Positions 1 to 20,000 of a DNA stretch of 20,000 nucleotides are shown piece by piece; the first letter of the stretch is position 1, and every line of letters starts with the position of its first letter. The notes below the pieces were generated by a model. It saw only the letters and a list, made by a program, of their open reading frames with translations. It was not told where the DNA came from and made no database searches. The stretch is from the IMG/VR virus record IMGVR_UViG_3300020221_001191; one strand, given 5' to 3'. A program made the position numbers and the translations under genes. This DNA is from an uncultured virus (IMG/VR IMGVR_UViG_3300020221_001191). Taxonomy: Duplodnaviria; Heunggongvirae; Uroviricota; Caudoviricetes.

Positions 1-930
1 ACCACGGCAACTCATTTATTGTCAAAATCATTAATCCATAAAAACCCTAACATCAATAACATTATTTGCCCTAATAATGTTTATGTCGCCGCTTGGAATT
101 CATTTTTATATGATAATCATTTTAATTTAAAACCGATTGATACCGACATAAAAACTTGGAATTTTAACGAAGATTTAATCAATCCTAAAAAAAACGACGC
201 CATTTTAGTTGTTCACAATTTAGGTAACATAGTTAATGTACCTAAACTACAGAATAAATTTAAAAACACTTTAATTGTTGAAGATAATTGTGAGGGATTT
301 TTGGGAAAATACGATGACCATTATTCGGGAACTAAATCACTTTGTTCTTCAGTTTCTTTTTTTGGTAATAAGACAATAACAAGTGGTGAAGGAGGTTGTT
401 TTATAACAAACGACGATGAAACATTCGAGTATATAAATAACATCAGAAATCAGGGTCAATCAAGTGAAAAATTTATACATAACAATTTAGGTTATAACTA
501 TAGAATGACCAATATACAAGCAGCAATTCTATATGGTCAGTTAGAGATTATGAATGAAATTATTGATAAGAAAAATGAGATCTTTAATTTGTATCGTGAA
601 AATCTAAAAACGTTGGACAATGTTGAATTTCAAGAAATTGAGTCAGGTACTATTCACTCAAACTGGATGTTTTCACTAAGATTTAATAATATTGATATAG
701 ACATTAAAAGGTCTTTGGAATTGCATCTATATAAAATGGGTGTTGAGACTAGGCCTATGTTTTACTCAATTAATTCACACAAACATTTAAAAAATATAAA
801 ATCAGATAACACCATATCTGACACACTAAATTCACAGGTATTATTATTACCAAGTTCCCCTAATTTGAATAAAGGTCAAGTATTATATATTTGCAGACTA
901 ATAAAAGATTTCTTTAAATTAAAAAAATGA
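1..930 (+). CDS. DegT/DnrJ/EryC1/StrS family PLP-dependent sugar aminotransferase (GDP-perosamine synthase-like), 5'-truncated by the window
   Basis: Frame is open from base 1 (TTATHLLS..., matching the family's 'NGTxAxHL' region). Motifs: IVEDNCE, SFFGNKTITSGEGG (PLP lysine), GYNYRMTNIQAA, GVETRPMF, LLLPSSPNL. Confidence 0.92.
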   Translation, partial: TTATHLLSKSLIHKNPNINNIICPNNVYVAAWNSFLYDNHFNLKPIDTDIKTWNFNEDLINPKKNDAILVVHNLGNIVNVPKLQNKFKNTLIVEDNCEGFLGKYDDHYSGTKSLCSSVSFFGNKTITSGEGGCFITNDDETFEYINNIRNQGQSSEKFIHNNLGYNYRMTNIQAAILYGQLEIMNEIIDKKNEIFNLYRENLKTLDNVEFQEIESGTIHSNWMFSLRFNNIDIDIKRSLELHLYKMGVETRPMFYSINSHKHLKNIKSDNTISDTLNSQVLLLPSSPNLNKGQVLYICRLIKDFFKLKK

Positions 931-1361
931 TAAAAATTTCACACAGAGGTAATATTAATGGTAAATTTGAGTCTTATGAAAACGAACCGAACTACATTGA
1001 TTTAGCAATATCAAAAGGATATGATGTTGAAGTTGACGTTTGGTTTATAGATAATATTCTTTGGTTGGGTCACGATAACCCTCAATACGGGGTTGATTTC
1101 AATTGGTTTAAGGATAGATTATCTAAATTGTGGATACATTGTAAAGACATCGACTCAGTACTATTCTTTAAAGAATGTGGGTATGATTTTAATTATTTTT
1201 GGCACCAAGAAGACCACATAACACTTACCTCTTTAAATTTTATTTGGGCATATCCCGGAAAACAACCAATTAAGGGTAGTATTTCAGTATTACCTGAGAT
1301 TAATAACGAAGATATTAATTTATGTTTAGGTGTGTGTAGTGACTTTATTGAAAATTATTAA
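927..1361 (+). CDS. Small glycerophosphodiester phosphodiesterase (PLC-like/GDPD) fold protein
   Basis: N-terminal ISHRGN, then EN, GYDVEVDVW, LGHD, WIHCK and C-terminal GVCSD, as in minimal GDPD-like proteins. ATGA overlap with the upstream gene. Confidence 0.7.
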   Translation: MIKISHRGNINGKFESYENEPNYIDLAISKGYDVEVDVWFIDNILWLGHDNPQYGVDFNWFKDRLSKLWIHCKDIDSVLFFKECGYDFNYFWHQEDHITLTSLNFIWAYPGKQPIKGSISVLPEINNEDINLCLGVCSDFIENY

Positions 1362-1368
1362 TTTCACC

Positions 1369-2754
1369 ATGTTAAAACAAAAAAAAATTACATCAGAAAA
1401 GGATATTGAGTTACTAAGGAATCACATAGATAATAGCCCAAAAGGAACAAAAACATTTAGGTACTTTCAAAAAAGAGATTTTTCAGTATTACAAAAACAT
1501 AAAATCACTTTTTTATATTTTAATAATGGTAAATGTGTAGGTTATGGGCATTTAGATGAAGAAGATGGTAATGTATGGTTAGGGGTGATAGTTTTTGACG
1601 GAAATAATGGTATGGGGTATGGTAAATATATTGTCGAATCGTTGATTAATTCTTATAATGGTGATATACTTTTATCTGTAGATAAGGACAATATTATGGC
1701 ACTAAAAATCTACAAAAATTTAAATTTTAAAATAATTAAGGAAAACGAAAAATCATATATAATGAAAAAATCTAAAAAAAATAAAGCATTAATTACAGGT
1801 ATAAATGGCCAAGACGGTTCTTACTTGGCAGAACTTTTAGTAGAAAAAGGTTATGAAGTTTGGGGTACAGTTAAAAGAAATTCAGTATCAGAAACACAAT
1901 CAACAAGAATTGATCATTTAAGAGACGACAATAAAATTACTTTAGAGTATGCTGACTTAACGGATATGGCCTCATTAATTAGGGTTTTGAAGATGGTTCA
2001 ACCAGATGAGGTTTATAACTTAGCCGCTCAATCTCATGTTAGAATATCATTTGATCAACCGATATACACCGCGAACGCAACGGGATTAGGTACATTAAAT
2101 ATGTTAGAAGCGGTTAGAATGGTTTCACCACACTCTAAAATTTATCAAGCTTCTTCTTCAGAAATGTTTGGAAATAACATAGATAGTGACGGGTACCAAA
2201 GGGAAACTACACCCATGAATCCGGTTTCGCCGTATGGGTGTGCTAAAGTTTTTTCATATAATATATGTAGAAATTATAGAAACTCTTATGGTATGAAAAT
2301 ATGGAATGGAATTTTGTTCAATCATGAATCACCAAGACGAGGAACTAACTTTGTAACAAATAAAGTAGTTAAAGCCGCAGTAAGAATTAGTTTAGGTTTA
2401 CAAGACAAATTACATATTGGTAATTTATCAGCAACAAGAGATTGGGGTCACGCAAAAGATTATGTTTATGCAATGTGGTTAATGTTACAAACCGAAAAAC
2501 CTGATGATTATGTTTGTGCGACAGGTATTTCACATTCAGTAAAAGACTTATGTGAATACGTATTTAGTTCATTAGGTTTAAATTATTTAGAATATATTGT
2601 TGTTGACGAAAAACATTTTAGACCCGAAGAGTTAGAAAACCTTAAAGGTGATTCATCAAAATTAAGAAAATATTTAATGTGGCAACCTGAATACACATTT
2701 GAAACAATGTTAGCTGAAATGATTAAATATTGGTTAAAATATTATGGAAAATAA
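1369..2754 (+). CDS. gmd: Fusion: N-terminal GNAT acetyltransferase + GDP-mannose 4,6-dehydratase
   Basis: Probable ATG at 1369. GNAT motifs VGYGHL, WLGVIV...NGMGYGKYIV, LSVDKDNIMALKIYKNLNF. Gmd domain from about 1762: ALITGINGQDGSYLAE, YNLAAQSHV, YQASSSEMFG, SPYGCAK, GILFNHESPRRG, RDWGHAKDYV. No stop between the domains. Confidence 0.93.
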   Translation: MLKQKKITSEKDIELLRNHIDNSPKGTKTFRYFQKRDFSVLQKHKITFLYFNNGKCVGYGHLDEEDGNVWLGVIVFDGNNGMGYGKYIVESLINSYNGDILLSVDKDNIMALKIYKNLNFKIIKENEKSYIMKKSKKNKALITGINGQDGSYLAELLVEKGYEVWGTVKRNSVSETQSTRIDHLRDDNKITLEYADLTDMASLIRVLKMVQPDEVYNLAAQSHVRISFDQPIYTANATGLGTLNMLEAVRMVSPHSKIYQASSSEMFGNNIDSDGYQRETTPMNPVSPYGCAKVFSYNICRNYRNSYGMKIWNGILFNHESPRRGTNFVTNKVVKAAVRISLGLQDKLHIGNLSATRDWGHAKDYVYAMWLMLQTEKPDDYVCATGISHSVKDLCEYVFSSLGLNYLEYIVVDEKHFRPEELENLKGDSSKLRKYLMWQPEYTFETMLAEMIKYWLKYYGK

Positions 2755-3661
2755 AATTTTAGTAACAGGCGGTCATGGTTTGGTTGGGTCTGAATTTATT
2801 GGTGACCAATATTTCAAACCAACTTCTAAAGAATATGATTTAAGAAATCCACAAGAAGTTAATAGATTAATGTTAAAGAATTTTGATAGTGTAATACATA
2901 CTGCGGGAAAAGTAGGTGGGTTAGGTGGTAATATGAATCATAAAGGAGAATTTTTTTATGACAACATAATGATAAACACTAACGTAATAGAGTCTTCAAG
3001 ACTTACAAAAGTAAAAAATTTAGTGGCATTTTTGTCAACATGTGTATTCCCCGATAATGTAGAATATCCCTTAACTGAGAAAAAAGTTCATTTGGGTCCA
3101 CCCCACTTTTCTAATGACGCATATGCATATGCTAAAAGAATGACCGATATTCAAATAACAGCATATAAAGAACAGTATGGATTAAATTATAAATCAGTTA
3201 TACCATCAAATATCTATGGTCCTAATGATAATTACGATATTATTAATGGTCATGTTATACCGTCACTAATTCACAAATGTTATCTTGCAAGAGAAAATAA
3301 AACCCCTCTTAAAATATGGGGATCAGGAAATCCGCTAAGAGAATTTATTTTTAGTAAAGATGTTGCAAAATTAACTGAATGGGCGCTGTTTAATTACAAT
3401 GAAAATGAACCAATAATACTTTCAACATCAGAAGAAATATCAATTAAAGAGATTGTTAATATTATTATTGAGCTGATGAATTTTAAAGGTGAAGTAATGT
3501 TTGATTCATCTAAACCTGATGGTCAACATAGAAAACCTTCTGACAATTCTAAAATAAAAAATTATTTACCTGAATTTAAGTTCACTCCTATATATGAAGG
3601 GTTAAAAGAAACTATTGAATTTTTCGAAAACAATTATAGTTTTGTAAGAAAAAATGGATAA
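2744..3661 (+). CDS. fcl: GDP-L-fucose synthase (GDP-4-keto-6-deoxymannose epimerase/reductase)
   Basis: ILVTGGHGLVGS Rossmann motif, AGKVGGLGGN, FLSTCVFP, YAYAKR (YxxxK), NIYGPNDNY, HVIPSLIHK, WGSGNPLREF, KPDGQ. Directly follows gmd. Confidence 0.92.
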   Translation: MENKILVTGGHGLVGSEFIGDQYFKPTSKEYDLRNPQEVNRLMLKNFDSVIHTAGKVGGLGGNMNHKGEFFYDNIMINTNVIESSRLTKVKNLVAFLSTCVFPDNVEYPLTEKKVHLGPPHFSNDAYAYAKRMTDIQITAYKEQYGLNYKSVIPSNIYGPNDNYDIINGHVIPSLIHKCYLARENKTPLKIWGSGNPLREFIFSKDVAKLTEWALFNYNENEPIILSTSEEISIKEIVNIIIELMNFKGEVMFDSSKPDGQHRKPSDNSKIKNYLPEFKFTPIYEGLKETIEFFENNYSFVRKNG

Positions 3662-4100
3662 ACAAAACAGAACTATAGGTATTACTTGTTCAACATTTGA
3701 TCTTTTACACGCAGGCCATATAATAATGTTAGAAGAGTGTAAAAAATATTGTGACTATCTAATATGCGCACTACAAATAGATCCAACAATTGATAGACCA
3801 GAAAAAAACAAACCAATACAGACTTTGGTTGAAAGATATATTCAATTAGATGCAGTAAAACACGTAGATAAAATTATACCATATAATTCGGAGGAAGAGC
3901 TCGAATCAATATTTTTATCTTTAGATTTAGATGTTAGGATAATAGGTGAAGAATATAAAGAAAAGGACTTTACGGCAAAAAACATTTGTCAAAAAAGAGG
4001 CATAAAGTTCGCCTATAACAAGAGAGATCATAATTTTTCATCTACTAACTTAAGAAATTTAATTTATGACCAAGAAACATCCAAAAGATTTGTAAGATAA
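3654..4100 (+). CDS. Cytidylyltransferase family protein (glycerol-3-phosphate cytidylyltransferase TagD-like)
   Basis: TFDLLHAGH (HxGH), ER...L.AVKHVD.IIPY, IGEEY, RDHNFSST. Confidence 0.85.
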   Translation: MDKQNRTIGITCSTFDLLHAGHIIMLEECKKYCDYLICALQIDPTIDRPEKNKPIQTLVERYIQLDAVKHVDKIIPYNSEEELESIFLSLDLDVRIIGEEYKEKDFTAKNICQKRGIKFAYNKRDHNFSSTNLRNLIYDQETSKRFVR

Positions 4101-4104
4101 AATT

Positions 4105-4836
4105 ATGCAAAAAAGAAAAATAAACACGACAACCGAGGATACTAAAACTCCACAATCAAAAAAAGAGTTCATAAACACGGTAGTAAAGAAAAAACAAAGA
4201 AGTAAGTTTCTTACTGAAAATCAAAAAGAATATTACGATAGATTAATCACGAATCAAATCACAATATGTTCGGGACCAGCTGGTGTTGGTAAAAGTTATA
4301 TTGCAATGAAGGCCGCAGTTGATCTTTTATTAGACGATGGAAACGCATATGAAAAAATTATAATTGTAAGGCCTGCGGTTGAGGCAGAGGAAAAACTTGG
4401 TTCACTGCCTGGAAACTTAGAAGAAAAATTAGATCCTTACATCTTCCCATCTTATTATTTATTGAATAAAATTATTGGTAAAGATGAGAGAGAAAAATTG
4501 AAGGAACATGAAATAATAGAAGTATTTGCTTTAGCATATATGAGAGGTATGAATATAGATAATTCGATTTTAATTTTCGAAGAAGCCCAAAACTCAACCC
4601 CCAATCAGATGAAACTCCTTCTTACTAGAATTGGATTCAATAGTAAGTTTTTTATATCTGGAGACATTGAACAAACTGATAGATATAAAGACAAAAAACA
4701 ATCAGGTTTATACGATGCTTTAACAAGATTCAAAGGGGTAAACGGAATAGGTATTTTTGAATTTGGAGAAAAAGATGGAGTAAGAAACCCAATTATTACA
4801 AAAATATTACAAAAATATGATGAGGATAGGCATTGA
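4105..4836 (+). CDS. phoH: PhoH family ATPase
   Basis: Walker A GPAGVGKS, IIIVRPAVEAEEKLGSLPG, LAYMRG, EEAQN, LLTRIG, SGDIEQTD, VRNPII. Confidence 0.93.
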   Translation: MQKRKINTTTEDTKTPQSKKEFINTVVKKKQRSKFLTENQKEYYDRLITNQITICSGPAGVGKSYIAMKAAVDLLLDDGNAYEKIIIVRPAVEAEEKLGSLPGNLEEKLDPYIFPSYYLLNKIIGKDEREKLKEHEIIEVFALAYMRGMNIDNSILIFEEAQNSTPNQMKLLLTRIGFNSKFFISGDIEQTDRYKDKKQSGLYDALTRFKGVNGIGIFEFGEKDGVRNPIITKILQKYDEDRH

Positions 4837-8353: not shown

Positions 8354-8725
8354 ATGCCCCGACCAACAAAAAAAGAAATTAATTTATCAAAAGAATCAAT
8401 GTTGTCTTTGATGCAAGAAATTTATAACGAACTTGTAGAACAAAGAAGTACTGCGATTAGAATACAAAACAAAATGTTAACAATGATGAAAGAACCTGAA
8501 GATATGACTGTGATAGGTCCTGTGATTGAAAAACAACAAAAAATCATAAATGATTGTGTTGAGAAAAAACTAACTTTGTCAAAATTACAAGCGCAAATGT
8601 GGCAAAAATCCACAGACAAAGAAGAAGATTTTACTCTGTCAGATATAGACATGAATGATCTTGCAATCCAAAGTTTATTACAAAAAGATATCAATACGGA
8701 CTCAAATTATAAAATGAAAAAATAA
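8354..8725 (+). CDS. Hypothetical helical/coiled-coil protein (123 aa)
   Basis: ATG-started ORF in gene-dense context with heptad-like Q/E/K/L pattern. Confidence 0.75.
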   Translation: MPRPTKKEINLSKESMLSLMQEIYNELVEQRSTAIRIQNKMLTMMKEPEDMTVIGPVIEKQQKIINDCVEKKLTLSKLQAQMWQKSTDKEEDFTLSDIDMNDLAIQSLLQKDINTDSNYKMKK

Positions 8726-8731
8726 TGTTTT

Positions 8732-10651
8732 ATGGCAGTAGATATAAATGAAGAGTTAAAAAAGGCTGAAAATAAATCAGGCGTATATAAAAAATACAAA
8801 GAGTATAAAAAAGGGTATGAAGACCTAAAAAAAAAGGTTGGAAGTTCACAGGAAACTAGTAACAATTTTTTGAAAAAACCTTTGAATGATTTCACGGCTT
8901 GGAAAAAAAAACATGAAGCTAATGCTAAAACTTTTTTGGATGAACTAATAAAACAATTGAAACAACTCAAAGGTTCTGGTGTTGAATCAGATAAGTTGAT
9001 CAAAAGAATATTTATCAATTCTTTAAAAAAAATCAAACCTCAGATAAAAAATCTCATTATCGATGAAGCGATCAAAGCATTAGGATGTAGTAACATAACT
9101 TTAACGATACCATCAACATACTACGTACCTGTTAAGTCTGTAGATTTATTTGGATCTTTTGAATTACCGCCGACCGACAAAATTGGAAAATTTTTCTATG
9201 AACAAAATGAAATTTCATACAACGAATATCCATTTTCGATGAATAGAGAACTATATAATAGAATTCAAAATCTAAATCAACCATATTCTGCTGTTGCGAA
9301 CAACAACTATTTAGGTCTATCTCAACAAGGTATTTTTGATATAACCTATGTTGAAAGCTACGTTGATCCCATATCTCTACAACCAATACAAGGTAGTTTT
9401 TTTAAAGTGGATATAAGTACAAGATTAGGAGTACCGGCCGTTGATAAATTGTTGTCAGATTATTACGAATCAATTGACATTTTAGATTATAAACAATTTT
9501 TTACAAATTTAGTAGATTATGTTACAGGAGTAATTTCTTTCGGAAGAGGTGACGGAAATTTAAAACTTAGTTCTATACAAAAAGTTTTAATTATTATGCA
9601 AAGAATATTAGGATTATGTTCTGATTCAAATAAAGAAATTAATGTCGGATCGTCTTCTAAAATATCTGAGGTTGATAATGTTGACGAATCTTTTTATGAA
9701 TTTAACAACATTGACCTTAGAATTATAGAACAAAATATTTCTGATATAAAATTAGGTGTAATCGAATACGAAGAGTGTGATAAAATTAAATTTCCTCTTA
9801 ACCTTGAGGCGGTTTTGACCGCCTTAGATGAATTAACTTTCAACGAAGATACCACAGACGTAAATGAAATAGAGGCAGCCTCAGGTATTATTTATCCCGC
9901 TACAGATGACACTTTTAAACTTTCTTTAGATGCAGGATTTTTTCAACAATTTATTAAAGCGTTAGTTAATTCTGTGTTATCGCCAAAGAATGTTTTACCT
10001 ATTATGACAGTTGCCGCAATGTTTAATCAACCTATTTATAAAGAAATTTCTAATATTGAGGACTTTCAAAAAAAATTCAGAACATTTTTTAACGAATTCA
10101 TGACTAAGATTACGGCAATTTTTACCAAAGAAGTTTTCAATGAACTTAAAAAAGAAATAAAAGCATTAGTGAAGTTGTTATTGGAAGACATAGGTACAGA
10201 GAAATCAAATAAAAAATATCGAATGATATTAGCAATTGCCGCTGTTATACCAGGACTATTAGTAATTGCAAAAGATTTCAGAGAATGTAGAAGTGTTTTA
10301 GATGAATTGTTACAATTGTTGAATATAGGTATAAAAAAAGGATTGGATGCTATAGCTGCCAAGGGTGGTGATTTACCACTTCCTTTATTATTGTCGGCAA
10401 AAATTTTGGATGGATATTCACCAACAAGAGCATTTCTAAACGTTATAGAAAATTTAGAAGAAATAGGAGTTCCTACTGGACCTATGCCAGATGGTAGCCC
10501 AAACGAATTTTTAGCGTCAATCAAAGCAATTATTGATGGAAACGCTAAAGAAATCGAAGAAAACAGTAAAGTAGCAATCGGTATTGGACCATTAACCATA
10601 ACACCAGCAGGTGTTACCACACCATCAGATGCATATGGAAAGTTTTTTTAA
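8732..10651 (+). CDS. Large hypothetical protein (639 aa), probably virion/baseplate-associated
   Basis: Long ORF two genes upstream of the gp5-like spike. The function is inferred from context only. Confidence 0.75.
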   Translation: MAVDINEELKKAENKSGVYKKYKEYKKGYEDLKKKVGSSQETSNNFLKKPLNDFTAWKKKHEANAKTFLDELIKQLKQLKGSGVESDKLIKRIFINSLKKIKPQIKNLIIDEAIKALGCSNITLTIPSTYYVPVKSVDLFGSFELPPTDKIGKFFYEQNEISYNEYPFSMNRELYNRIQNLNQPYSAVANNNYLGLSQQGIFDITYVESYVDPISLQPIQGSFFKVDISTRLGVPAVDKLLSDYYESIDILDYKQFFTNLVDYVTGVISFGRGDGNLKLSSIQKVLIIMQRILGLCSDSNKEINVGSSSKISEVDNVDESFYEFNNIDLRIIEQNISDIKLGVIEYEECDKIKFPLNLEAVLTALDELTFNEDTTDVNEIEAASGIIYPATDDTFKLSLDAGFFQQFIKALVNSVLSPKNVLPIMTVAAMFNQPIYKEISNIEDFQKKFRTFFNEFMTKITAIFTKEVFNELKKEIKALVKLLLEDIGTEKSNKKYRMILAIAAVIPGLLVIAKDFRECRSVLDELLQLLNIGIKKGLDAIAAKGGDLPLPLLLSAKILDGYSPTRAFLNVIENLEEIGVPTGPMPDGSPNEFLASIKAIIDGNAKEIEENSKVAIGIGPLTITPAGVTTPSDAYGKFF

Positions 10652-10871
10652 TATTGAAGATAAAAGAATAAAGGCAAATGAAGTTCTTAAAATTATTAAA
10701 GAGCATAAAGACAGATCGAACAGAGATTTGCAAATTGCCATGGAATTTATAAGTGAGGATCACAAAGTCACCAAAGAATCTATAATTAAGTTAACACACC
10801 ATTTGGACGCTTTGGAAAACACTTATAATGTTATACATAAAGAATATACAGAAAGAACAAAGGTCATATGA
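10635..10871 (+). CDS. Hypothetical coiled-coil protein (~78 aa)
   Basis: ATG at 10635 (alternative 10629) overlaps the upstream gene end. ATGA-coupled to the next gene. Confidence 0.65.
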   Translation: MESFFNIEDKRIKANEVLKIIKEHKDRSNRDLQIAMEFISEDHKVTKESIIKLTHHLDALENTYNVIHKEYTERTKVI

Positions 10872-12421
10872 TAGACGATAAAAGAATGATTTTCCAAGGT
10901 TATGTAATAAATAACCAAGATCCTTTAATGTTAGGTCGTATAAGAGCCTTACCAATCGATCAAGTTGAGTCCGATATTTTACCCATAGATTTCAATCCTG
11001 AAAAAGATATTTGGACTGAAAAAGATCCTCTAATTTTTCTTCCTTTACTACCTTATTATATAAGTCAAATTCCAAAAATTGATGAGTATATTCACATTTT
11101 TTATCACAACACAGAAATGGTTGTTGACAATTCTAAATTTTATATTCAAGGACCTATTACTAGACCCCAAAATAACTTTTTTGAATCTTGGCATAATTCA
11201 GAATCAATGTTAGCTAGTGGAGTTTTTTTAAAAAAAGCAAATAACATCAAAGACCCGTTAAGTTTTGAAATCAAAGCTGAAGCAAAAGGGATTTATCCTG
11301 AACCAGGAGATAATGCTTTACTTGGAAGAGGGACCTCTGATGTTATTGTTAAACAAGAAGAAGTGTTAATTAGAGCAGGAAAAAATATACCAACACAAAC
11401 TGCAGGATTTAATTTACCAACACCTAGACTTAATCGAGCATTTGTCCAACTTTCAAACTTCGAACTCGAAAGAGGTGAAAGACCTCCCAAAAAAGTTACT
11501 GAATTAATTAATAAAGCTTTGGCGGTCAAAAAATTAATCGAGTGGGAAATTACAAATGAAAACAGTATTACAGGTCTAACACAAAATAATTCAGTAACAG
11601 GTGTGACATTTTATGATGGTAATATTAAATTATATTCTTTACTACCTAAATCAAAGGTAACAACAATTGATATTCACATGAACACACCTTTAGATGATTC
11701 TAAAGCGGGGCCAGAGTATGAATTGTTTTTTACTGGTCAAACTTTAGAGGAAGGTGTAAAAATTATCAATCAATTTATTTCGGGGGTAAATAATGGAAAA
11801 ATCAATGTTCAAAATTATGAACAATATCCTTTCGATAGTAGTTTACAGATTTCAAGACAATTTCCCTTTTATTTTAGACCTTCAAAAAATAACGTTGATA
11901 AGCTTAGTTCGACAGGATCAACTGACTTTAACATGGTGAATAATTTTTTTACACAAATAAAATTGCTACCATCAAATAAAGAATATGGAAGTGTTTTAGT
12001 TTGGACAAAAAATATTGTGGGCCAACAACTTACAGTTCAAACAAATACACTTGATCAAAATGTTTACACATCAAATCCAATATCCTTCGGAACAATGGTC
12101 GCAGACACACTATATCTTCTTTCCCATAAAACAGATATCCCTTCCAAAAGAAAAATTGTTTTAGAACCGAAAAAAACTTTATATGGTATTCCACAACCTT
12201 TCTTCAACGAAATTATAAGTAAAAACACAGATCCTATGGTAAGAGGAAATGAACTTATGAAATTATTAACTCTTATTGTTGATTTTTTAGAGTCACATGT
12301 TCATAACATAAATAAAGCGCCAATACCAGTTGCTGTCGATGGAACAAAGATAGAAGAAATAAGAAATATTTTGCAAAATTCTAGTAACACAATATTAAAT
12401 CAAAGAATACGACTTAATTGA
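10868..12421 (+). CDS. Baseplate hub/central spike protein (gp5/VgrG-like OB-fold N-terminus, HxH tip)
   Basis: FQGYVINNQDPLMLGRIRA and PLLP...PKIDEYIHIF match the gp5/Vgr OB fold. PGDNALLGRGTSDVIVKQEEVLIRAGK is beta-helix-like. C-terminal PMVRGNEL...ESHVH is typical of spike tips. Confidence 0.7.
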   Translation: MIDDKRMIFQGYVINNQDPLMLGRIRALPIDQVESDILPIDFNPEKDIWTEKDPLIFLPLLPYYISQIPKIDEYIHIFYHNTEMVVDNSKFYIQGPITRPQNNFFESWHNSESMLASGVFLKKANNIKDPLSFEIKAEAKGIYPEPGDNALLGRGTSDVIVKQEEVLIRAGKNIPTQTAGFNLPTPRLNRAFVQLSNFELERGERPPKKVTELINKALAVKKLIEWEITNENSITGLTQNNSVTGVTFYDGNIKLYSLLPKSKVTTIDIHMNTPLDDSKAGPEYELFFTGQTLEEGVKIINQFISGVNNGKINVQNYEQYPFDSSLQISRQFPFYFRPSKNNVDKLSSTGSTDFNMVNNFFTQIKLLPSNKEYGSVLVWTKNIVGQQLTVQTNTLDQNVYTSNPISFGTMVADTLYLLSHKTDIPSKRKIVLEPKKTLYGIPQPFFNEIISKNTDPMVRGNELMKLLTLIVDFLESHVHNINKAPIPVAVDGTKIEEIRNILQNSSNTILNQRIRLN

Positions 12422-12428
12422 TATTTAT
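12421..12428 (+). promoter_or_regulatory. ATATTTAT motif, candidate late promoter
   Basis: GATATTTATT, with the core 13 nt upstream of ATG 12442. Confidence 0.5.
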
Positions 12429-12441
12429 TATAAAAAGATAA

Positions 12442-13908
12442 ATGTCAATTAATAACTCTTATTTTAGTAGAAATAATACAATAGTATTCAACAGTTATGT
12501 AAATACAGGTAGGAACCCTGTTACGCAACTTTATTATGGGGATGGTGGTTTAGTAAATCCAATAGGGTATTCAAGGTTTATTTTTGATTTAGATTTGGAG
12601 CTATTGAGAGAAAAGTTATTCACAGGTGTAATCTCCACAGGTTGTACAAACAACATGAGACACATTTTAAAAATGACAAATACTTCATCATTCGATAATG
12701 AACTTTTGAATACGTCTATGCCTGATGGGAGTTTGAGAGCGACTTCTTTTGATTTGATCCTTTTTAGAATACCACCGAAAGATTTTGATCAAACAAGACC
12801 ACAATATTGGGATGAAGGTGTTGGTTATGATTTTTATGATGTACCAAATCAAATGATACCAAACAAATATTATTCCAACAGACCATCGAATTGGTATCAA
12901 ACAACAACAATAGAAAATTGGGAACAATCTGGAGTTTATGACAACATGAATATTGGACCTATACCCTTTTCTTCGTTGACAATTGTAGATATACAACATT
13001 TTGAATTCGGTAATGAAGACATCGAATTTGATATGACACAAGAAATCAATGATTTATTAAACGGAGACTACATAAATCCTACAGGTTGGGGAATCGCATA
13101 TCTTCCAGATGTTGAAAATCTTGTAGGGACAAGTGGAATTTATTCTGTAGGTTTTTTTACAAGACATACCCAAACTTTTTATGAACCCTATTTACAAACA
13201 ACTTATGATGATTTAATTGAAGATGATAGAAATAACTTCACATTGGGAACTGCCAATAAATTATACCTATACATTTACGAAGATGGGGATTTCAAAAATT
13301 TAGATCAAACACCATTAGTAACCATTTCCGATTCATCGGGAACTGCAATACCTGGTTTAATAAACTTAATTTCCTGTTTGAAAACAAAAGGAGTTTATGA
13401 AGTTGAAATTCCGCCGCTAATTGGTTACAAAACACCTTGTTTATTTACGGACACATGGTCATATATAAAACTTAATGGATTTTCATTACCCAATCAAATT
13501 AATGAATTTACTGTATATCCGTTGAAAAAATCAATCCAAATTGGAACGTCAACAAATGATCCTTCTCAATATGGATTTAGTTATTACGGATTAAAACAAA
13601 ATGAAAAAATCTTAAATACAGATGTTAGAAAAGTTGGGGTTATAATAAAACAGGCCTATACAACAAATAAACAACTTCCCAACGTAGATGGTCAATATAG
13701 AGTGTATGTTAGAGAAGGTCAAACTGAAGTTATTGTTCAAGATTGGACTTCATTGAATAGAACACCAAATGAGTATTATTTCATTTTTGATACAAGAGAT
13801 AAAATACCAAATATGTATTTTGTTGATATCAAGGTAACGACCTCAGGTCAAGTAAATGTTTATAAACAACAAATTAATTTTCAAATCGTAAACGAGAAAA
13901 CAGAATAA
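12442..13908 (+). CDS. Probable virion structural protein (DNRLRE-like beta-rich N-terminal domain, Ig-like C-terminal part)
   Basis: NTG.NP..L, SRFIFDLD, WDEGVG, SNW, IEFDMT, GWGIA, FFTRHT..FYEPYL pattern recalled from DNRLRE-like phage structural proteins. Beta-rich composition. Confidence 0.55.
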   Translation: MSINNSYFSRNNTIVFNSYVNTGRNPVTQLYYGDGGLVNPIGYSRFIFDLDLELLREKLFTGVISTGCTNNMRHILKMTNTSSFDNELLNTSMPDGSLRATSFDLILFRIPPKDFDQTRPQYWDEGVGYDFYDVPNQMIPNKYYSNRPSNWYQTTTIENWEQSGVYDNMNIGPIPFSSLTIVDIQHFEFGNEDIEFDMTQEINDLLNGDYINPTGWGIAYLPDVENLVGTSGIYSVGFFTRHTQTFYEPYLQTTYDDLIEDDRNNFTLGTANKLYLYIYEDGDFKNLDQTPLVTISDSSGTAIPGLINLISCLKTKGVYEVEIPPLIGYKTPCLFTDTWSYIKLNGFSLPNQINEFTVYPLKKSIQIGTSTNDPSQYGFSYYGLKQNEKILNTDVRKVGVIIKQAYTTNKQLPNVDGQYRVYVREGQTEVIVQDWTSLNRTPNEYYFIFDTRDKIPNMYFVDIKVTTSGQVNVYKQQINFQIVNEKTE

Positions 13909-13912
13909 TTAG

Positions 13913-13920
13913 ATATTTAT
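13913..13920 (+). promoter_or_regulatory. ATATTTAT motif, candidate late promoter
   Basis: GATATTTATA, with the core 13 nt upstream of ATG 13934. Confidence 0.5.
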
Positions 13921-13933
13921 AAAAAAAAATATT

Positions 13934-14323
13934 ATGCCATTTCAAAATTTTGAGTTATGTGATCAATCGGGAGTTTTTGTTCAAGTCGACGATAATGATG
14001 CAACTTTAGTTACAGGTGACACGTATTCCGTAATAGATGGTTCTACAGGTGCAATATATTGTGCCACTTTTGTTGGGGGTGCTCCATCGGGACCTGAATA
14101 TACTTTAGGAACTTTATTTGATTCTTGTATTTCTTGTAATTCTAGTATTCCATTTTCCGCAGGAACAGAATACAAAGGTTGTGTTATCTGTTGTCCATGT
14201 GGAACAGGAACAACCGTAAATGAAGTAACATTACCACACCCAGAATGGACAGGGTTATATGGAAATCCAATTACACAGTTAGATGCAGTTCAATTAGGAG
14301 GACAAAACGGATTATACATGTGA
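13934..14323 (+). CDS. Small Cys/Gly/Thr-rich protein, probably virion-associated
   Basis: 129 aa with 8 Cys including CISC and CVICCPC. Very Lys-poor compared with its neighbours. Confidence 0.75.
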   Translation: MPFQNFELCDQSGVFVQVDDNDATLVTGDTYSVIDGSTGAIYCATFVGGAPSGPEYTLGTLFDSCISCNSSIPFSAGTEYKGCVICCPCGTGTTVNEVTLPHPEWTGLYGNPITQLDAVQLGGQNGLYM

Positions 14324-14328
14324 AGATT

Positions 14329-14787
14329 ATGAAAAATTTAAATTATATTATTAGAAAAGTTTTATTAGAAACACACGACGAACAACATTCCTCGAGATAT
14401 ATGTTTTTTTCCAATTTGGAACAAATGAGAAGACAATGTGATCTATTATTAGATTTGGATCAAAACATGATTGACGAAATTTTAGAAAACGGTCATGATT
14501 GGGCTCAAGATCACGTCAGTGAAGCAAAAAACAACATGGATCAAGTTTTTGATTTTTTGATGAATCAGACCAATTCAGAACACCATGAAGACAATATGTA
14601 TGACGATATGATGATGGAAGGTAGGAAAAAAACTGGAACAAAATTATGTGCTAGAGGTATTGCATCTGCCAAAGCAAAATACGACGTATATCCAAGCGCA
14701 TATTCAAATGGTCACGCTGTCCAAGTCTGTAAAGGGAAAATTAAAGGACTTGACGGAAAAAGAAGGTGTTCAGGAGCGTTTTGTTAA
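14329..14787 (+). CDS. Probable head-internal protein: leader + acidic domain + basic Cys-containing 'AKAKYDVYPSAY' domain
   Basis: ATG at 14329 (5 nt after the previous stop) gives MKNLNYIIRKVLLE. The C-terminal KLCARG..AKAKYDVYPSAYSNGHAVQVCKG resembles the N-half of a DUF5872-type viral domain (from recall). Confidence 0.7.
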   Translation: MKNLNYIIRKVLLETHDEQHSSRYMFFSNLEQMRRQCDLLLDLDQNMIDEILENGHDWAQDHVSEAKNNMDQVFDFLMNQTNSEHHEDNMYDDMMMEGRKKTGTKLCARGIASAKAKYDVYPSAYSNGHAVQVCKGKIKGLDGKRRCSGAFC

Positions 14788-14789
14788 TG

Positions 14790-14816
14790 AACTAATCCTA
14801 ATTAGTTTTATTTTAT
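14790..14816 (+). terminator. Weak AT-rich hairpin, possible terminator
   Basis: AACTAAT-CCTA-ATTAGTT followed by TTATTTTAT, just after stop 14787 in a convergent intergenic region. Confidence 0.3.
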
Positions 14817-14948
14817 ATTCATTTCGATATTTGTAGAACAAACATAAACTACAAATAAATGAAAAAAGAAGAAACAAAAGTGAAATCGAAGTAAAAACAA
14901 TATAAAAAATTCTTTGGATTATATTTTAAAAAAAAAATTAATTCTAAT

Positions 14949-15716
14949 CTAAGAAGATTTAAGTTTTTGAATAATTGACAGTACCGTGGTATCTTCTTTT
15001 ATATTCTTTTTTGGTTTATAAGAAGTCATCACAGGTTTTTGTCCTTTACCTTGTTGTGGATCTTTTTTTTCGGCTCTTCTTTTTTGAGCACAAGCACTCC
15101 TTTTTTGTGAGTCAGACATTTTACCAGCAACTCCCGCAGCTCTACACTTAGGATAAGAACCCTTAGAAGTATCACTTCGTCCACAGGGAGGATGCTTACC
15201 GTCGACTTTACGACAAATATCTACCCAAGGACCACTTGGTTGAGAAGATCCTTTGGGTTTCTTCTTTTTACCAAACCATACGGCCAAATCTTCGTTTATT
15301 AAACCTTTGTCTGAAACTTCCACCCACTCATTAAAAGGGACCTTTTCTATAAATGGCGCCAATTTCCTATTATGATCAGGACTTTTACCATCATACATAA
15401 ATTGATTCACAGGGTTTCCATCTTGATCTGAAAAGGTTGAGTAAGGGTGGGATTTGATGTAATTCTGTATTTTTGAAGCGACTTTTTCCAACTCTATAAT
15501 TTGATCTTTTTTTAGGTCAAACTTGTGGTCATAACTATCATATTGGACAAGTGGGCTTTTGAAATTAGATACAGACTTGTCAAATGGTCCCAAACTCGAT
15601 TTTTTCCATGGTCTAAGACCTGGTTGCACGGGAGGTATATAACTTCCCCGACTTCCCGTAGCGTCACTCGTCGCCTCTCTAATTACCTTAGATATAATTT
15701 TATTTAGATTTTTCAT
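14949..15716 (-). CDS. Probable head-internal protein: leader + basic Cys-containing 'WVDI...CGRS...YPKC' domain
   Basis: Starts MKNLNKIISKVIREATSD. The C-terminal DLAVWF...PWVDICRK...PCGRS...YPKCRAA...KMSDSQKRSACAQKRRAE resembles the C-half of a DUF5872-type domain (from recall). Confidence 0.75.
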   Translation of the reverse strand: MKNLNKIISKVIREATSDATGSRGSYIPPVQPGLRPWKKSSLGPFDKSVSNFKSPLVQYDSYDHKFDLKKDQIIELEKVASKIQNYIKSHPYSTFSDQDGNPVNQFMYDGKSPDHNRKLAPFIEKVPFNEWVEVSDKGLINEDLAVWFGKKKKPKGSSQPSGPWVDICRKVDGKHPPCGRSDTSKGSYPKCRAAGVAGKMSDSQKRSACAQKRRAEKKDPQQGKGQKPVMTSYKPKKNIKEDTTVLSIIQKLKSS

Positions 15717-15752: not shown

Positions 15753-15964
15753 TGAATGAAGAAAAAGAAATTTATGGTAACCTTTTTGGGTCAATAGAAC
15801 TTTTGAGTGAGGAACATTTAGAGGCAATTTTAGTGTCTATGGATAAGGATTTAGCAAATTATTATATAATTGAATCTGTTAAATTGGCCTACAGGAAAGG
15901 GGTTTATACAATTGGTGAAACAGAAGTTATTTCTAAAGCAATTAGAACTATGTTAAGACAATAA
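15752..15964 (+). CDS. Hypothetical protein (70 aa)
   Basis: ATG at 15752 gives MNEEKEIYGNLFGSI..., filling the gap between two - strand genes. Protein-like composition. Confidence 0.65.
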   Translation: MNEEKEIYGNLFGSIELLSEEHLEAILVSMDKDLANYYIIESVKLAYRKGVYTIGETEVISKAIRTMLRQ

Positions 15965-16636
15965 TTTATTTGATTTTTTAATATTGTCAACACCCCACAT
16001 AGGTTGTAAATTACCTAATGACCAACAATTCATAAACGCTTCATCGCCTATTTCTAAAATCATAAACGATGAAATGGGTTTAACGTGGTCAACGTGCCAT
16101 TCACCGTAGTTATCCCACGACATATTTTCACTGAATCTATCTTCCAAATGAGATATAAGTTGCTCGGGAGTATATTTTAGAATGTCAAAATAATGTCCGT
16201 TTTTATTTATGTCGTTTTCTTTAAGAACTTGATAAATAGCAGTTCTGAAATTGTTTATTAATTTATAGAGGGGGTCTCTTGATTTACGATTTCTTTCGTA
16301 ATTTCTTTTATTTTCCCTATGTCTTTCAATATTTTTTTTTCTCCATTTTTGATGATACTCATTAAGATGTTCTCTATTTTTTTCAGACCATTTTTTGTAA
16401 TAAATTAATTTCTTTTCTTTGTGTTTTTGGTAGTTTCTTTTATCAGATGCACTTTTACCCCCTTTATATTTTCTTCCAGATGACCCAATCTTAACATTAT
16501 TTTCTTTTAAAATTCTTAACACTATATGTTTTTTTATATCTAATTTTTCAGATATAGAAGGACTTTTCAAATATTCTTCATTATAAAGTCTTATAATTTC
16601 ACATTCTAAATCCTTATCAATAATTATTTTTTTCAT
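15953..16636 (-). CDS. HNH endonuclease (free-standing homing-endonuclease-like) with N-terminal HTH and basic helical linker
   Basis: C-terminal MSWDNYGEWHVDHVKPIS...CWSLGNLQPMWGVDNIKKSNK. N-terminal IIRLY...SPSISEKLDIKKHIVLRILKEN is HTH-like. K/R/Y-rich middle region. Confidence 0.85.
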   Translation of the reverse strand: MKKIIIDKDLECEIIRLYNEEYLKSPSISEKLDIKKHIVLRILKENNVKIGSSGRKYKGGKSASDKRNYQKHKEKKLIYYKKWSEKNREHLNEYHQKWRKKNIERHRENKRNYERNRKSRDPLYKLINNFRTAIYQVLKENDINKNGHYFDILKYTPEQLISHLEDRFSENMSWDNYGEWHVDHVKPISSFMILEIGDEAFMNCWSLGNLQPMWGVDNIKKSNKLLS

Positions 16637-16641
16637 ATAAT

Positions 16642-16649
16642 ATAAATAT
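16642..16649 (-). promoter_or_regulatory. ATATTTAT motif, candidate late promoter for the HNH gene
   Basis: TATATTTATA on the - strand, core 5 nt upstream of ATG 16636 and downstream of the capsid terminator. Confidence 0.45.
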
Positions 16650-16673
16650 AACGTAGAACCTATTATTATAAAT

Positions 16674-16704
16674 AAAAAAAGGTCAGATTTCTCTGACCTT
16701 TTTT
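16674..16704 (-). terminator. Rho-independent terminator of the major capsid gene (possibly bidirectional)
   Basis: On the - strand: AAAAAA-GGTCAGA-GAAA-TCTGACC-TTTTTTT, a perfect stem with a GNRA loop and U-tract, about 20 nt after the capsid stop. Confidence 0.9.
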
Positions 16705-16723
16705 CTTATAAAACTTTAATTGA

Positions 16724-18661
16724 TTATCTCAATTCTCTCAAATCGAATGTTCTAACACCATCCACGGTAATTCTCCCGTAGAATCTGTTGTTCACCATCT
16801 TCTTCGCGTATCTGGTCATAATACCTTTGATTGGCGTAAAGTTGAATGGGTTATACATTGTAGGTGTTAATTGTAGAGGAACATACGGTGCGTAAATGTA
16901 ACCTGTGTCTAATAATGAAGTTCCTTTGTGTCCGATCAAAACTTGGTTTGGTGGGAAGTAAGGATCACGATAAACTTGGTAACGTCCTGAAAGTGTACCT
17001 ACTCTTTCAATACCCATGTTGTATTGGTCTTGCTCAGGAGCCGCGTTAGATACGTGGAAGTATTCTAAATCGTCAAAGATAGCAGAAACCTCAGATGATA
17101 CAACAATCCAGTTAGCTCCACCTCTCAAAGTAGATTTGTGGATTTGTGCTGACAATTGGTTGATTGCAGTAATCATAGTTTGGTTCCAATCTTTCTGAGT
17201 ATAAGAAACTTGGTTGTTGATTCTTCTCCATCCGTTGTAGTCCCAACGTAACTGCCATGCCGCTCCTTTTCTCAAGTCACGTAAGATTTCACGGTCAATT
17301 TCAGCTGCAACTTGCTCTGATAACAAAGCCGTCAATTCGGCCTCAGCATCAATGTTGTGGAATGCAGCAACGTCTTGTGCTAACTCAGGTGACCACTGTG
17401 CTCTTAGTTTTCTTTCTGTAACAGATACAGTTACTGACTCAAGGTCAAAAGAAACCTCACCAATTTGATCTTCAAATTCCAAATTGGCATATCTTCTATA
17501 CCATGCGGTAAATGAAGATGCTGATGATCCTGATGAGATTGTTGTCCCTGTATATCCGTCTAACGAAGTCGCATCACAATCAGCACATACAGGACAAGAT
17601 AAATCAACCTCTAACCAAATACAACCATTTTCATCACAAATGTCATTATAGTTACCACCATTACCACCGTTAGATGGACTGTTTGGATAACCTGACGCAT
17701 TTGTGAACACAGTTGCTGCGTTGCTACCATATTTTACAATACCTTTACCATAGATTTGAGTTACAACTCTAAATAATAGAGGAGCGTAAACTGTGGATCC
17801 ATTATAAGTAGTTGTTGTTACACTACAAGGTGTTGTTGCTGCTGAGAAACCATTAGCCGCGTAAATTCTAAGGTCAGAAAGGAATGACTCAGTGTCCATT
17901 TCGTTACCATCAGGACCGATAAGTTTTCCAGCTCCTGAATTCATGAAACCACAAAGTTTAACGATAACTTTTCTATAGTTACCTGCTGGAATAATTTCAC
18001 CAGCACCAATGTTAGCGTTTACTAACTCAGAACCGGCCCATGCTTGAACTAACGTAGTTGCAGTGACCGCAGTCCACTTACCTTTAGAGTAGTCAAATAA
18101 TCCAGGAGGATCTAATGACGCTTCGTTGCCTTCGTAAAATAAATCGTAAAGATTTTTTTTGTAGTAGTAATCATTGGTAGGATATCCTTGGCTAGGATTG
18201 TTCAAATTGGCATTAACCGCTTCTGGTGAACCGATTGGTGCGTAATGATCACCACCCGCTGTTGCGTTAGATGGTGAGGAATTTGGATAAAGGTTTGCAT
18301 ACGTAGAACTAAGATTTTGATATCCTTGAATACGTGGTACAAAGTAGAACAATTTACCAATAGGTAAATTCATTGCTTGTACTGATACGATGTCGTTAGC
18401 TAACAATTTAGAAAATACACGTCTTACAATCGGGAAAACAACTGTTTCGAATGCTCCATTTGAAGTTCCGTCAGAAGTTGCTTCGTTGATTAAAAAAGAT
18501 GCTTGATTTTCGTATAATTGTGCTACGTTTTCTTTTAGGTGACCTCTTAGGCCATCTAAAAAACCTAATTTGTCCCATTTGTTAATTGTGTCTTCTTTGA
18601 TAACTTTAAGGTGTTTTAACCCGATGTTACCAACAAGACCTGATTCTAATAAAGCTCCCAT
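16724..18661 (-). CDS. gp23: Major capsid protein (T4 gp23 family)
   Basis: LYENQ, FPIVRRVFSKLLANDIVSVQAMNLPIGKLFY, RKLRAQWSPELAQDVAAFHNIDAEAELTALLSEQVAAEIDREIL, RGGANWIVVS, GTLSGRYQVYRDPY, GYIYAPYVPL, FTPIKGIMTRYA. Confidence 0.97.
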   Translation of the reverse strand: MGALLESGLVGNIGLKHLKVIKEDTINKWDKLGFLDGLRGHLKENVAQLYENQASFLINEATSDGTSNGAFETVVFPIVRRVFSKLLANDIVSVQAMNLPIGKLFYFVPRIQGYQNLSSTYANLYPNSSPSNATAGGDHYAPIGSPEAVNANLNNPSQGYPTNDYYYKKNLYDLFYEGNEASLDPPGLFDYSKGKWTAVTATTLVQAWAGSELVNANIGAGEIIPAGNYRKVIVKLCGFMNSGAGKLIGPDGNEMDTESFLSDLRIYAANGFSAATTPCSVTTTTYNGSTVYAPLLFRVVTQIYGKGIVKYGSNAATVFTNASGYPNSPSNGGNGGNYNDICDENGCIWLEVDLSCPVCADCDATSLDGYTGTTISSGSSASSFTAWYRRYANLEFEDQIGEVSFDLESVTVSVTERKLRAQWSPELAQDVAAFHNIDAEAELTALLSEQVAAEIDREILRDLRKGAAWQLRWDYNGWRRINNQVSYTQKDWNQTMITAINQLSAQIHKSTLRGGANWIVVSSEVSAIFDDLEYFHVSNAAPEQDQYNMGIERVGTLSGRYQVYRDPYFPPNQVLIGHKGTSLLDTGYIYAPYVPLQLTPTMYNPFNFTPIKGIMTRYAKKMVNNRFYGRITVDGVRTFDLRELR

Positions 18662-18690: not shown

Positions 18691-20000
18691 TTATTTTATT
18701 TTTAACATCAAATCCTTCATTCTTAAAAATTGAGGATTCTCATACGTTTTTGACTCAATTAAGTTTACTTTTGAACCTGTTTCAACAGATTTATTTACAG
18801 TTCTTTCAATTGATTCGGTTAATTTTTGTTCTGAACCTGAACTTACTGAAGATGACAATTCATTTTTAATAGTTCGGTAAAGATTTTTAGATTCTTTCAA
18901 AGATTCAACATTATCAAATCTTCTTAGAATATTTATTTTTTCTTGTTTAGTTGTTGAGTGTTCAGTGAACAAACGAGTTGCATAAGCTAAATTTGAATTA
19001 AAAACCGCAACTTCATTGATTTTGGTTCTGAAAACGTCTAAAGCTTTTTTATACTCGTTATTTTTTTCTTTTAACATTTCAACTTCTTCATTTATTCTTG
19101 TGTGCGGTCTTACTCTGATTTCTTTTCTGTTAACATTTTGATCAGAACCTTTTCTGTTTCCAACTTTATTGGCTCTGGTGTAACTATTAGTTCGTACGGC
19201 TTCTTTAGTTTCCATTTTTCTAACATTCTTGAAATCACCATTCGTTTCGTCCTTATATTCAAATTTTGCTTTACCTGTTCCCATGGCTTTAGTTCCTTTT
19301 CCAAAAGCTTCTTTTCTTTTTTCATTAAACCCTCCGCTCATGTTAGGTTTTTTACCATATGCAAATTTAGGACCACGACCAATACCGACACCTTTATTTT
19401 TGATTGATTTTTTGGTTTTTTCAACGGCTTCAGCGATTGCATTTTCTAAGTCATCTCCTTCGAATTCATAAACTTTTTCTTCACTTCCGTAACCATCTTC
19501 TTCTTCAAGACCAATTCCGCCCATCATAGCACCTTTTGCGGCACCAGCCCAAGACCAACCTTCATTATATTCATGTTCAGGCTCGCTATCTATATCTTCG
19601 CCCAATTTATAATCGGATTCGTCATATATGTTCTTACCAAACTTGCTTGAAGTGTCCCCATCCATTTCTATTTCATATATTACTTCATTCATTTTTCTTT
19701 CTGATTCTCTTAGTCGTATCATATATTCGTTATCACCGTCTTCAAGGTGTAACATTTCACCTTCTTTTTTTATAACGATTCCATCATCATCTCCCATTGC
19801 TTTGAAAACTTTTAAGACTTCAGCGTCAGAAGCTCCTCTCATATCGATAGTTTCTCCTTCATCATCCATTTCCATGTCTTCATCATCCATTTCCATGTCT
19901 TCATCATCCATTTCCATGTCTTCATCATCCATTTCCATGTCTTCATCATCCATTTCCATGTCTTCATCATCCATTTCCTTGTCTTCATCATCCATTTTTT
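18691..20000 (-). CDS. Prohead core/scaffolding protein (gp22-like), 5'-truncated by the window
   Basis: Immediately upstream of the capsid gene. Highly acidic low-complexity N-part with many (L/I/M)xE sites, and a C-terminal coiled coil (EEVEMLKEKNNEYKKAL...INEVAVFNSNLAY...ILRRFD...LKESKNLY). Frame open to the window edge. Confidence 0.75.
   Translation of the reverse strand, partial: KMDDEDKEMDDEDMEMDDEDMEMDDEDMEMDDEDMEMDDEDMEMDDEGETIDMRGASDAEVLKVFKAMGDDDGIVIKKEGEMLHLEDGDNEYMIRLRESERKMNEVIYEIEMDGDTSSKFGKNIYDESDYKLGEDIDSEPEHEYNEGWSWAGAAKGAMMGGIGLEEEDGYGSEEKVYEFEGDDLENAIAEAVEKTKKSIKNKGVGIGRGPKFAYGKKPNMSGGFNEKRKEAFGKGTKAMGTGKAKFEYKDETNGDFKNVRKMETKEAVRTNSYTRANKVGNRKGSDQNVNRKEIRVRPHTRINEEVEMLKEKNNEYKKALDVFRTKINEVAVFNSNLAYATRLFTEHSTTKQEKINILRRFDNVESLKESKNLYRTIKNELSSSVSSGSEQKLTESIERTVNKSVETGSKVNLIESKTYENPQFLRMKDLMLKIK
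19857..19997. repeat. 21-bp coding tandem repeat (about 6.7 copies) encoding MDDEDME
   Basis: CTTCATCATCCATTTCCATGT x5 perfect from 19857, one copy with a single substitution (M to K) and a partial copy. Confidence 0.95.

Follow-up and report, generated by a model that had tools for sequence, protein, structure and literature searches.

The window analysed here is a 20,000-nucleotide stretch of DNA from a T4-like phage; it is the reverse strand of bases 67425-87424 of the 106,306-base IMG/VR virus record IMGVR_UViG_3300020221_001191 (G+C 31%; CheckV completeness 36%). Two convergent genes in the window, referred to below as ORF A and ORF B (ORF, open reading frame), encode proteins that begin with a similar 14-residue leader and end in small basic modules, module A and module B, which by profile comparison are two parts of a pair represented in Pfam by the family DUF5872. 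We propose, with moderate confidence and from conserved sequence motifs, that the two proteins would be head-module precursors, and that the leader and the protease-type sites that accompany it would belong to an enlarged T4-style capsid-targeting system releasing small basic head proteins. A CHU_C/SprB-repeat protein encoded in the record hints at a Bacteroidota host.

ORF A (14329-14787, + strand) encodes 152 amino acids (aa) and begins MKNLNYIIRKVLLE; ORF B (14949-15716, - strand) encodes 255 aa and begins MKNLNKIISKVIRE. Both frames are open and face one another across 161 bases, an interval in which no terminator-like site was found. An earlier sequence-only reading had described facing genes with these coordinates and starts, unrelated outside the leader and each ending in a basic, Cys-containing module. 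This description was borne out: BLASTP aligns residues 1-35 of the two proteins (E 8e-5 for the pair) and nothing else, and each terminal module is basic and contains four Cys. A longer, 180-aa version of ORF A starting at an upstream ATG (14245) was rejected; it overlaps the preceding gene and is without orthologue support.

Each protein can be divided into three parts. The ORF A leader (residues 1-14, 14329-14370, + strand) ends in L-L-E and is predicted to be helical over residues 2-14. It is followed by an acidic helical pro-region (residues 15-97, 14371-14619, + strand) that ends in MMME, with helices predicted at residues 22-41, 45-54 and 57-84 and disorder at 84-103, and then by module A (residues 98-152 and the stop codon, 14620-14787, + strand), a predicted basic helical hairpin of the form KLCARG..YPSAY..VCKG with helices at 105-117 and 124-134. 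The ORF B leader (residues 1-14, 15675-15716, - strand), with a helix predicted at residues 2-16, is followed by ATSD; a middle region (residues 15-142, 15291-15674, - strand) ends in GLINE; and module B (residues 143-255 and the stop codon, 14949-15290, - strand) reads DLAVWF..WVDIC..HPPCGR..YPKC..KRRAEKK..GKGQKP. The last 16 residues of ORF B (14955-15002) form a predicted leader-like helix.

The arrangement is conserved across a freshwater clade of uncultured phages. ORF B has 553 relatives in IMG/VR, and the counts given below for related loci refer to the best 80 of these, which are full length and 49-100% identical. ORF A faces ORF B in 69 of the 80 loci, and the remaining 11 stop no more than 1006 nucleotides past the ORF B match. 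Genes in the clade follow in the order gp23, an HNH gene where present, a small gene on the opposite strand, ORF B, the facing ORF A and then genes of 129 and 488 aa. The orthologue sets used for alignment comprise 29 unique ORF A and 47 unique complete ORF B sequences. Among the former the pro-region is the best-conserved part, and module A occurs in two variants, KLCARG..YPSAY..VCKG in 23 of the 29 and LW..AWA..VCPSAYCNG..GGKW in the other six. Among the latter, residues 143-237 are almost unchanged and the N-terminal half diverges. Identity over the rest of ORF B falls to 49% while module B remains nearly invariant, a pattern more in keeping with a role in structure or in association with DNA than with fast-evolving anti-defence.

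Parts of both proteins recur elsewhere. The ORF A pro-region has a 34%-identical match in LR756502, a 642-kb uncultured phage record, and, immediately before module A in the protein P0236, a weak match (E 4e-4 in a small set); it may constitute an independent module. A unit of the form G.Y..P...G.(R/K).W....L.PF in the N-terminal half of ORF B is duplicated in orthologues of 306-315 aa (L051, L052, L056, L075 and similar), and is also found after E↓ATGS in unrelated chains such as P0228 (↓ marks a putative cut).

The resemblance of the two leaders exceeds chance. All-against-all ungapped comparison (BLOSUM62) was applied to the first 28 residues encoded by each of 134 genes in the record, with internal segments of the same genes as control. 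The N-termini of ORF A and ORF B score 46; a score of at least 40 is reached by 62 of 8911 N-terminal pairs and by one of 8911 internal control pairs. Past codon 5 the leaders of ORF A and ORF B differ at synonymous positions with the residues kept, and the similarity is therefore maintained at the protein level. A genome-wide scan for the leader, which the sequence-only reading had called for, found it on a third gene (G000 30007-31158), and, with the score threshold set at a level attained by one control pair, it placed 31 of the 134 genes in nine N-terminal families, among them MKKIIRLTESDLTRIVKRVIKE (about 11 genes) and MNLQESIRRILREE (four genes). A strict (I/L)xE ending at residue 10-26 is present in 25 of the 31 family genes as compared with 29 of the 103 others (Fisher 4e-7, with paralogues not independent).

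Genes beginning with one of a small number of common leaders, such as MNLQESIRRILREE and MKKIIRLTESDLTRIVKRVIKE, stand in arrays outside the window (G000 452-4719, 8546-14082, 20067-20594, 36266-37154 and 41430-41966; loci L004-L006). One tagged protein has a weak match to the ADP-ribosyltransferase family ART-PolyVal (2e-6, below the Pfam cut-off), which recalls T4 Alt, and one carries DUF2237.

In both proteins the leader and the terminal module are each bounded by a hydrophobic-x-Glu motif. In ORF A these are VLLE↓T after the leader and MMME↓G (E97) before module A; in ORF B they are VIRE↓ATSDA after the leader and GLINE↓DLAVW (E142) before module B. The potential prohead-protease sites that had been pointed out directly before the modules, MMME↓GRKK and LINE↓DLAVW, are thus present, and they are conserved in orthologues. 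Hydrophobic-x-Glu is kept at E14 and E97 in 29 of 29 ORF A orthologues and at E14 and E142 in all 47 of those of ORF B; E14 is invariant in the 28 ORF A and 37 ORF B sequences that were aligned there. E65 of ORF A is likewise kept with a hydrophobic residue at P3. In ORF B, E14 is followed by (A/S)T(S/G)(D/E), and the junction hydrophobic-x-E↓DL(A/G)VWFG is invariant among the 47 orthologues.

The same residues occur in the major capsid protein, a member of the gp23 family (16724-18661, - strand; Pfam Gp23 1.1e-72). It carries FLINE↓ATSDG at residues 56-65 (about 18470-18493), where T4 gp23 has its site, and this is likely to be its maturation site. P4-P1 of the gp23 site are the same as those of the site before module B, and P1'-P4' are the same as those of the site after the ORF B leader; the gp23 site, and this sharing of residues with ORF B, are kept in 29 of 29 related loci. 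Just past the end of the window lie genes for a T4-type large terminase, a gp20 portal protein (7.6e-77) and a Peptidase_S77 prohead protease (4.6e-23).

The relationship of the modules to DUF5872 (PF19197; 116 profile positions, gathering cut-off 27.5 bits) had been suggested in the sequence-only reading. It holds in that the modules map to adjacent, non-overlapping parts of the family; it does not extend to the Pfam model itself, which scores neither ORF. Pfam searches with ORF A, ORF B or the modules alone gave no match at E≤10, and PF19197, run against all six frames of the entire 106-kb record, likewise had no match at E≤10. In PHROGs, module A matches phrog_27331 (4e-12) and module B phrog_23735 (2e-7), both of unknown function. 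The link is made by intermediates. Profile positions of about 1-50 correspond to module A and those of about 53-116 to module B. The natural fusion P0226 (200 aa) scores 55.7 bits for DUF5872, and in hhalign comparisons the ORF A family aligns to its residues 23-75 (98.7%, E 1.9e-16) and the ORF B family to its residues 108-200 (99.75%, E 2.4e-27), so that the search against fused homologues gave separate stretches for the two modules, as had been anticipated. A phmmer search from module B reaches P0259, P0263, P0265 and P0268, all above the DUF5872 cut-off. By Pfam, the module A part of the profile is matched by P0268 (residues 90-133, profile 1-48) and P0243 (residues 17-72, profile 2-58), and the module B part by P0265 (residues 4-76, profile 54-114), P0259 (residues 6-77, profile 54-113; 2.9e-21) and gene 00022 of phage P-SCSP2 (profile 55-112; 5e-14). 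P0263, which contains both modules, adjoins a DUF5872 cluster in the ESM Atlas (score 0.96).

Modules A and B form a near-obligate pair. When module B was searched with phmmer against 1.84 billion representative proteins, 469 matches were obtained at E≤0.001, and 27 of the best 150 of these carry module A in the same polypeptide (hidden Markov model E<1e-5), 17 with A before B and 10 with B before A; the cluster names of ten of the fused representatives are all 'hypothetical'. The reciprocal search with module A gave only close orthologues, and no fused forms, among the best 120 of its 4679 matches. A more distant set of 80 IMG/VR loci was collected with P0265, a distant module B protein. Module A lies within about 1 kb in 77 of them: it is fused to module B in 12 (11 with B before A, one with A before B) and encoded by a separate ORF on the same strand in 65, upstream of module B at a distance of 5-950 nucleotides, in phages without the leader. 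The three loci without module A start no more than 257 nucleotides before module B, and an upstream module A would be cut off.

The modules are also encoded side by side in five records of cultured phages in the phage collection (HTVC027P, HTVC106P, HTVC023P, 023Pt_psg01 and P-SCSP2). The pair is gp49 and gp50, with overlapping stop and start, in HTVC027P, and gp26 and gp25 in HTVC106P; in the T7-like Prochlorococcus phage P-SCSP2 it consists of the small genes 00019 and 00022, which lie between the scaffold and major capsid genes. The passages found in the papers on P-SCSP2 and P-SCSP1u contain no mass spectrometry of the pair genes. P-SCSP2 also encodes, beside the pair and in the same interval, an EF-hand-like mini-protein of 41 aa and a DUF6321 protein (3.9e-24) (L172 4171-4296 and 4719-4976).

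Where the modules occur in one polypeptide, the spacer between them ranges from a few to about 180 residues. In six of eight aligned fusions with A before B, (I/L/V/M)xE↓G precedes module A and xxE↓DL precedes module B. The 287-aa protein P0211 is a chain of this kind, in which a leader ending ITE↓G is followed by module A, TINE↓D, module B, IIQE↓A and a third small module. Four ORF B orthologues of 381-487 aa (L017, L044, L055 and L085) run in frame into an internal leader, ITLTE.DL.RIV.RVL.E, and an extra domain of about 150-200 residues beyond it, giving a two-cargo chain, and several module B proteins end in a leader-like helix.

These architectures bear on the suggestion, made in the sequence-only reading, that the two genes carry halves of one viral domain. 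The variation in order and spacing, and the encoding of the modules mostly by separate genes, speak for two linked modules over halves of a single fold; that part of the reading, which is also at odds with a protease-type site between the modules in T4-type chains, was not supported in the form given. It could still be argued that the modules, once released, re-associate as halves of a single fold into a heterodimeric, possibly zinc-binding, DNA-binding or injected effector. The co-occurrence of A and B in 77 of the 80 distant loci and in 69 of the 69 related loci with enough flank would be expected on this basis, fused forms exist, Pfam models both parts as one family, and in the window clade each module has four Cys. 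We nevertheless consider such an effector possible but unlikely. Fusions are found in both orders and with widely different spacers, and in T4-type chains cut motifs stand between the two modules. Module A alone forms a predicted hairpin, and module B is mostly predicted to be disordered. Nor are the Cys conserved: variants of module A carry four, two or none (none in the P0226 type), and in module B C178 and C191 alone are shared by all distant members. A four-ligand Cys/His set is thus not a property of the family, and the zinc binding that had been put forward was not upheld. A zinc site formed by two Cys from each module was considered and rejected, as the Cys are not conserved, and for the same reason a general zinc site is unlikely.

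Charge divides ORF A sharply. The pro-region (residues 15-97) has a net charge of -16 and an isoelectric point (pI) of 4.3, and module A (98-152) a net charge of +11 and a pI of 10.0; module B (143-255) has a net charge of +19 and a pI of 10.2. Across 29 of 29 ORF A orthologues the net charge of the pro-region lies between -10 and -19, and the pattern of acidic and basic signs is kept. The AlphaFold2 model of ORF A (mean predicted local distance difference test score, pLDDT, 61.8) contains the leader helix, a three-helix pro-region and the module A hairpin, with the disordered stretch 84-103 around E97. The model of ORF B has a mean pLDDT of 45.5, and module B, largely below 50, is for the most part predicted to be disordered. 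Searched against BFVD, the ORF A model has no match at E≤0.001. The nearest matches, above that threshold, are stand-alone module A relatives of 44-57 aa, and names such as 'virion protein' among the BFVD matches were not used, their E values being above 1.

We favour the following scheme. The 14-residue amphipathic leader would act like the T4 capsid targeting sequence and bring each precursor into the scaffold core of the prohead. The T4-type prohead protease would then cut after hydrophobic-x-Glu, at E14 in both proteins, E97 in ORF A and E142 in ORF B, as the conserved motifs suggest, and cleavage would free a 5.8-kDa module A peptide and a 10-12-kDa module B peptide. Most likely these basic peptides would stay with the packaged DNA as internal head proteins, neutralising or organising it, and they may enter the host along with it. 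More speculatively, the acidic pro-region may mask the basic module A until cleavage. Other phages encode the same modules as adjacent small genes or as fusions, and other T4-like phages encode them in leader-tagged chains in which each module is preceded by that cut motif.

A different possibility is that DUF5872 modules act in the infected cell, as nucleoid, DNA-binding or regulatory peptides rather than as capsid cargo, and that the shared helix serves oligomerisation, docking with a different phage machine or recognition by the phage's own DnaK or ClpB. Because the pair in the pelagiphages HTVC027P and HTVC106P is leaderless and lies among small unannotated genes, near regulators and in no obvious head context, a cytoplasmic role is possible. 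Furthermore, the phage of the window has its own genes for a ClpB-like double AAA ATPase and for full-length Hsp70/DnaK (2.6e-259) (L006 13770-15812, - strand, and 15984-17852, + strand). We regard this explanation as rather unlikely, since the leader ends in a protease motif far more often than do the N-termini of other genes, and the same motif stands before each module in many architectures. The prime-side residues of the ORF B site match those of the capsid protein, ORF B closes the head operon, and P-SCSP2 has the pair placed between its scaffold and capsid genes. That the shared leader merely records recombination between the starts of paralogous genes, as a handle for shuffling or a common translation-initiation region, and has no function as protein, is very improbable: ORF A and ORF B are indeed nearly identical over their first 15 nucleotides and many gene starts in the genome fall into families, but the residues are kept through the synonymous differences past codon 5, the leader pattern and E14 are kept in orthologues that are only 49-60% identical overall, and leader-like helices are also found inside and at the C-terminus of related proteins.

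Several observations nevertheless weigh against capsid targeting and release, among them the leaderless pelagiphage pair. P3 at E97 is mostly Met, with a strict I/L in five of 29 orthologues, and the T4 protease is described as needing L/I. By eye, the leader agrees with the T4 capsid targeting sequence MKTYQEFIAE in starting with MK, in being amphipathic and in ending with hydrophobic-x-E, and in nothing further. Of the T4-type processing that had been proposed for the shared leader, the gp21-type motif at its end and the encoded Peptidase_S77 are borne out. The weak structure models yield no fold-based function, and the clade has no cultured relative among 50,697 phage records. Finally, the T4-late-promoter-like TATAAATA is not enriched in the window (8 occurrences as compared with 4.1 expected, a number reached in 13 of 200 shuffles).

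DUF5754-like, DUF6321 and DUF5661 units are seen in the same chains as the DUF5872 modules. Tentatively, and with a good deal of doubt, we suggest that these units and the two DUF5872 modules may together make up a pan-viral kit of capsid-internal 'core' peptides that accompany the DNA, from T7-like podoviruses through T4-like phages to algal giant viruses, and that T4-like phages may use it in the form of leader-tagged precursors and polyproteins, with acidic pro-regions masking the peptides until they are cut in the prohead. A full-text literature search, with most subscription journals and supplements outside its scope, turned up no paper that treats large leader families or a cargo role for DUF5872. 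Were the favoured scheme correct, DUF5872, a function-unknown family of abundant aquatic phages and giant viruses, would gain a testable role as protease-released, DNA-associated capsid cargo. T4 capsid targeting, so far known from a handful of T-even phage proteins, would become a general and modular means of delivery, one by which the genome of a single uncultured T4-like phage handles dozens of proteins. For N-terminal proteomics, the conserved cut sites specify exactly which termini to expect.

Some neighbouring genes deserve mention. Between the prohead protease and gp23 lies a gene for a very acidic protein with DDEDMEM repeats, of which the C-terminal 434 of 546 aa are encoded in the window (18691-20000, - strand). 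The protein has no family match, and a scaffold-like role is inferred from its position. The gene contains 11.5 perfect tandem copies of a 21-base unit that codes for DDEDMEM (window 19857-20000, continuing past the end; L007 10328-10568), and the composition of this repeat, acidic residues and Met, is like that of the stretch just before module A in ORF A. An HNH/endonuclease VII-like gene (15953-16636, - strand; phrog_1035 1.7e-15) stands between gp23 and ORF B. It interrupts the leader and module system and is not a component of it; the gene is present in 28 of the 80 related loci, one copy being only a 34-residue remnant, and in the T4 record the homing endonuclease gene segD lies at the equivalent place after gene 23. 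Directly upstream of ORF A is a clade-conserved gene (13934-14323, + strand) for a 129-aa Cys-rich protein (..CVICCPCGTG..) with no family match in Pfam or PHROGs.

The modules of the window resemble DUF5872 in their basic composition and in the motifs YPSAY, WVD, CGR and YPKC. They differ in that the two parts are found, clade-wide, on two convergent genes rather than in one polypeptide in profile order, in that each part sits behind a leader and pro-region, and in that the window clade carries additional Cys and, in module B, a Lys-rich insert of 12 residues. DUF5872 is listed among giant-virus genes in the part of PMC12085832 that was available; the portion of the main text of PMC8715426 that was available is without mention of it. 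A further comparison is with the phiKZ-like giant phages 201phi2-1, phiKZ and SPN3US, in which, according to the sections consulted of PMC9026906, a gp21-related protease processes many head proteins by cutting after the Glu of a short motif, with several such sites in the propeptides. Their motif, in contrast, is S/A-X-E, and their cargo is an inner body or an ejection-protein bolus of large proteins. To our knowledge, no processed head protein of these phages has been linked to DUF5872.

Among the closest parallels is T4 itself. The T4 gp21 protease cuts after L/I-X-E, the first 10 residues of internal protein III (IPIII) suffice for packaging, and the T4 internal proteins are basic and present in about 300 copies each (PMC9026906, in the sections consulted); passages of PMC3012670 and PMC12373910 describe diverse T4 internal proteins as having only the leader in common. 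In the T4 record the corresponding sites are SFLTE↓AEIGG in gp23, MKTYQEFIAE↓A in IPII and IPIII, and MAKINELLRE↓S in gp24. The phage of the window resembles T4 in that a short N-terminal leader is common to otherwise unrelated small basic proteins and ends in hydrophobic-x-Glu followed by Ala, Ser or Thr, and in that a Peptidase_S77 is encoded in the head operon together with a capsid protein bearing the same type of site. The leader itself is unrelated in sequence to that of T4 and is 14 rather than 10 residues long, and there are several leader families; one third of a genome holds about 30 tagged genes, as compared with three to four in T4. Here, a second, internal cut would release the C-terminal module from a larger pro-region. 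Finally, whereas the T4 cargo consists of fast-evolving anti-restriction proteins, the putative cargo here is a highly conserved, pan-viral pair of modules.

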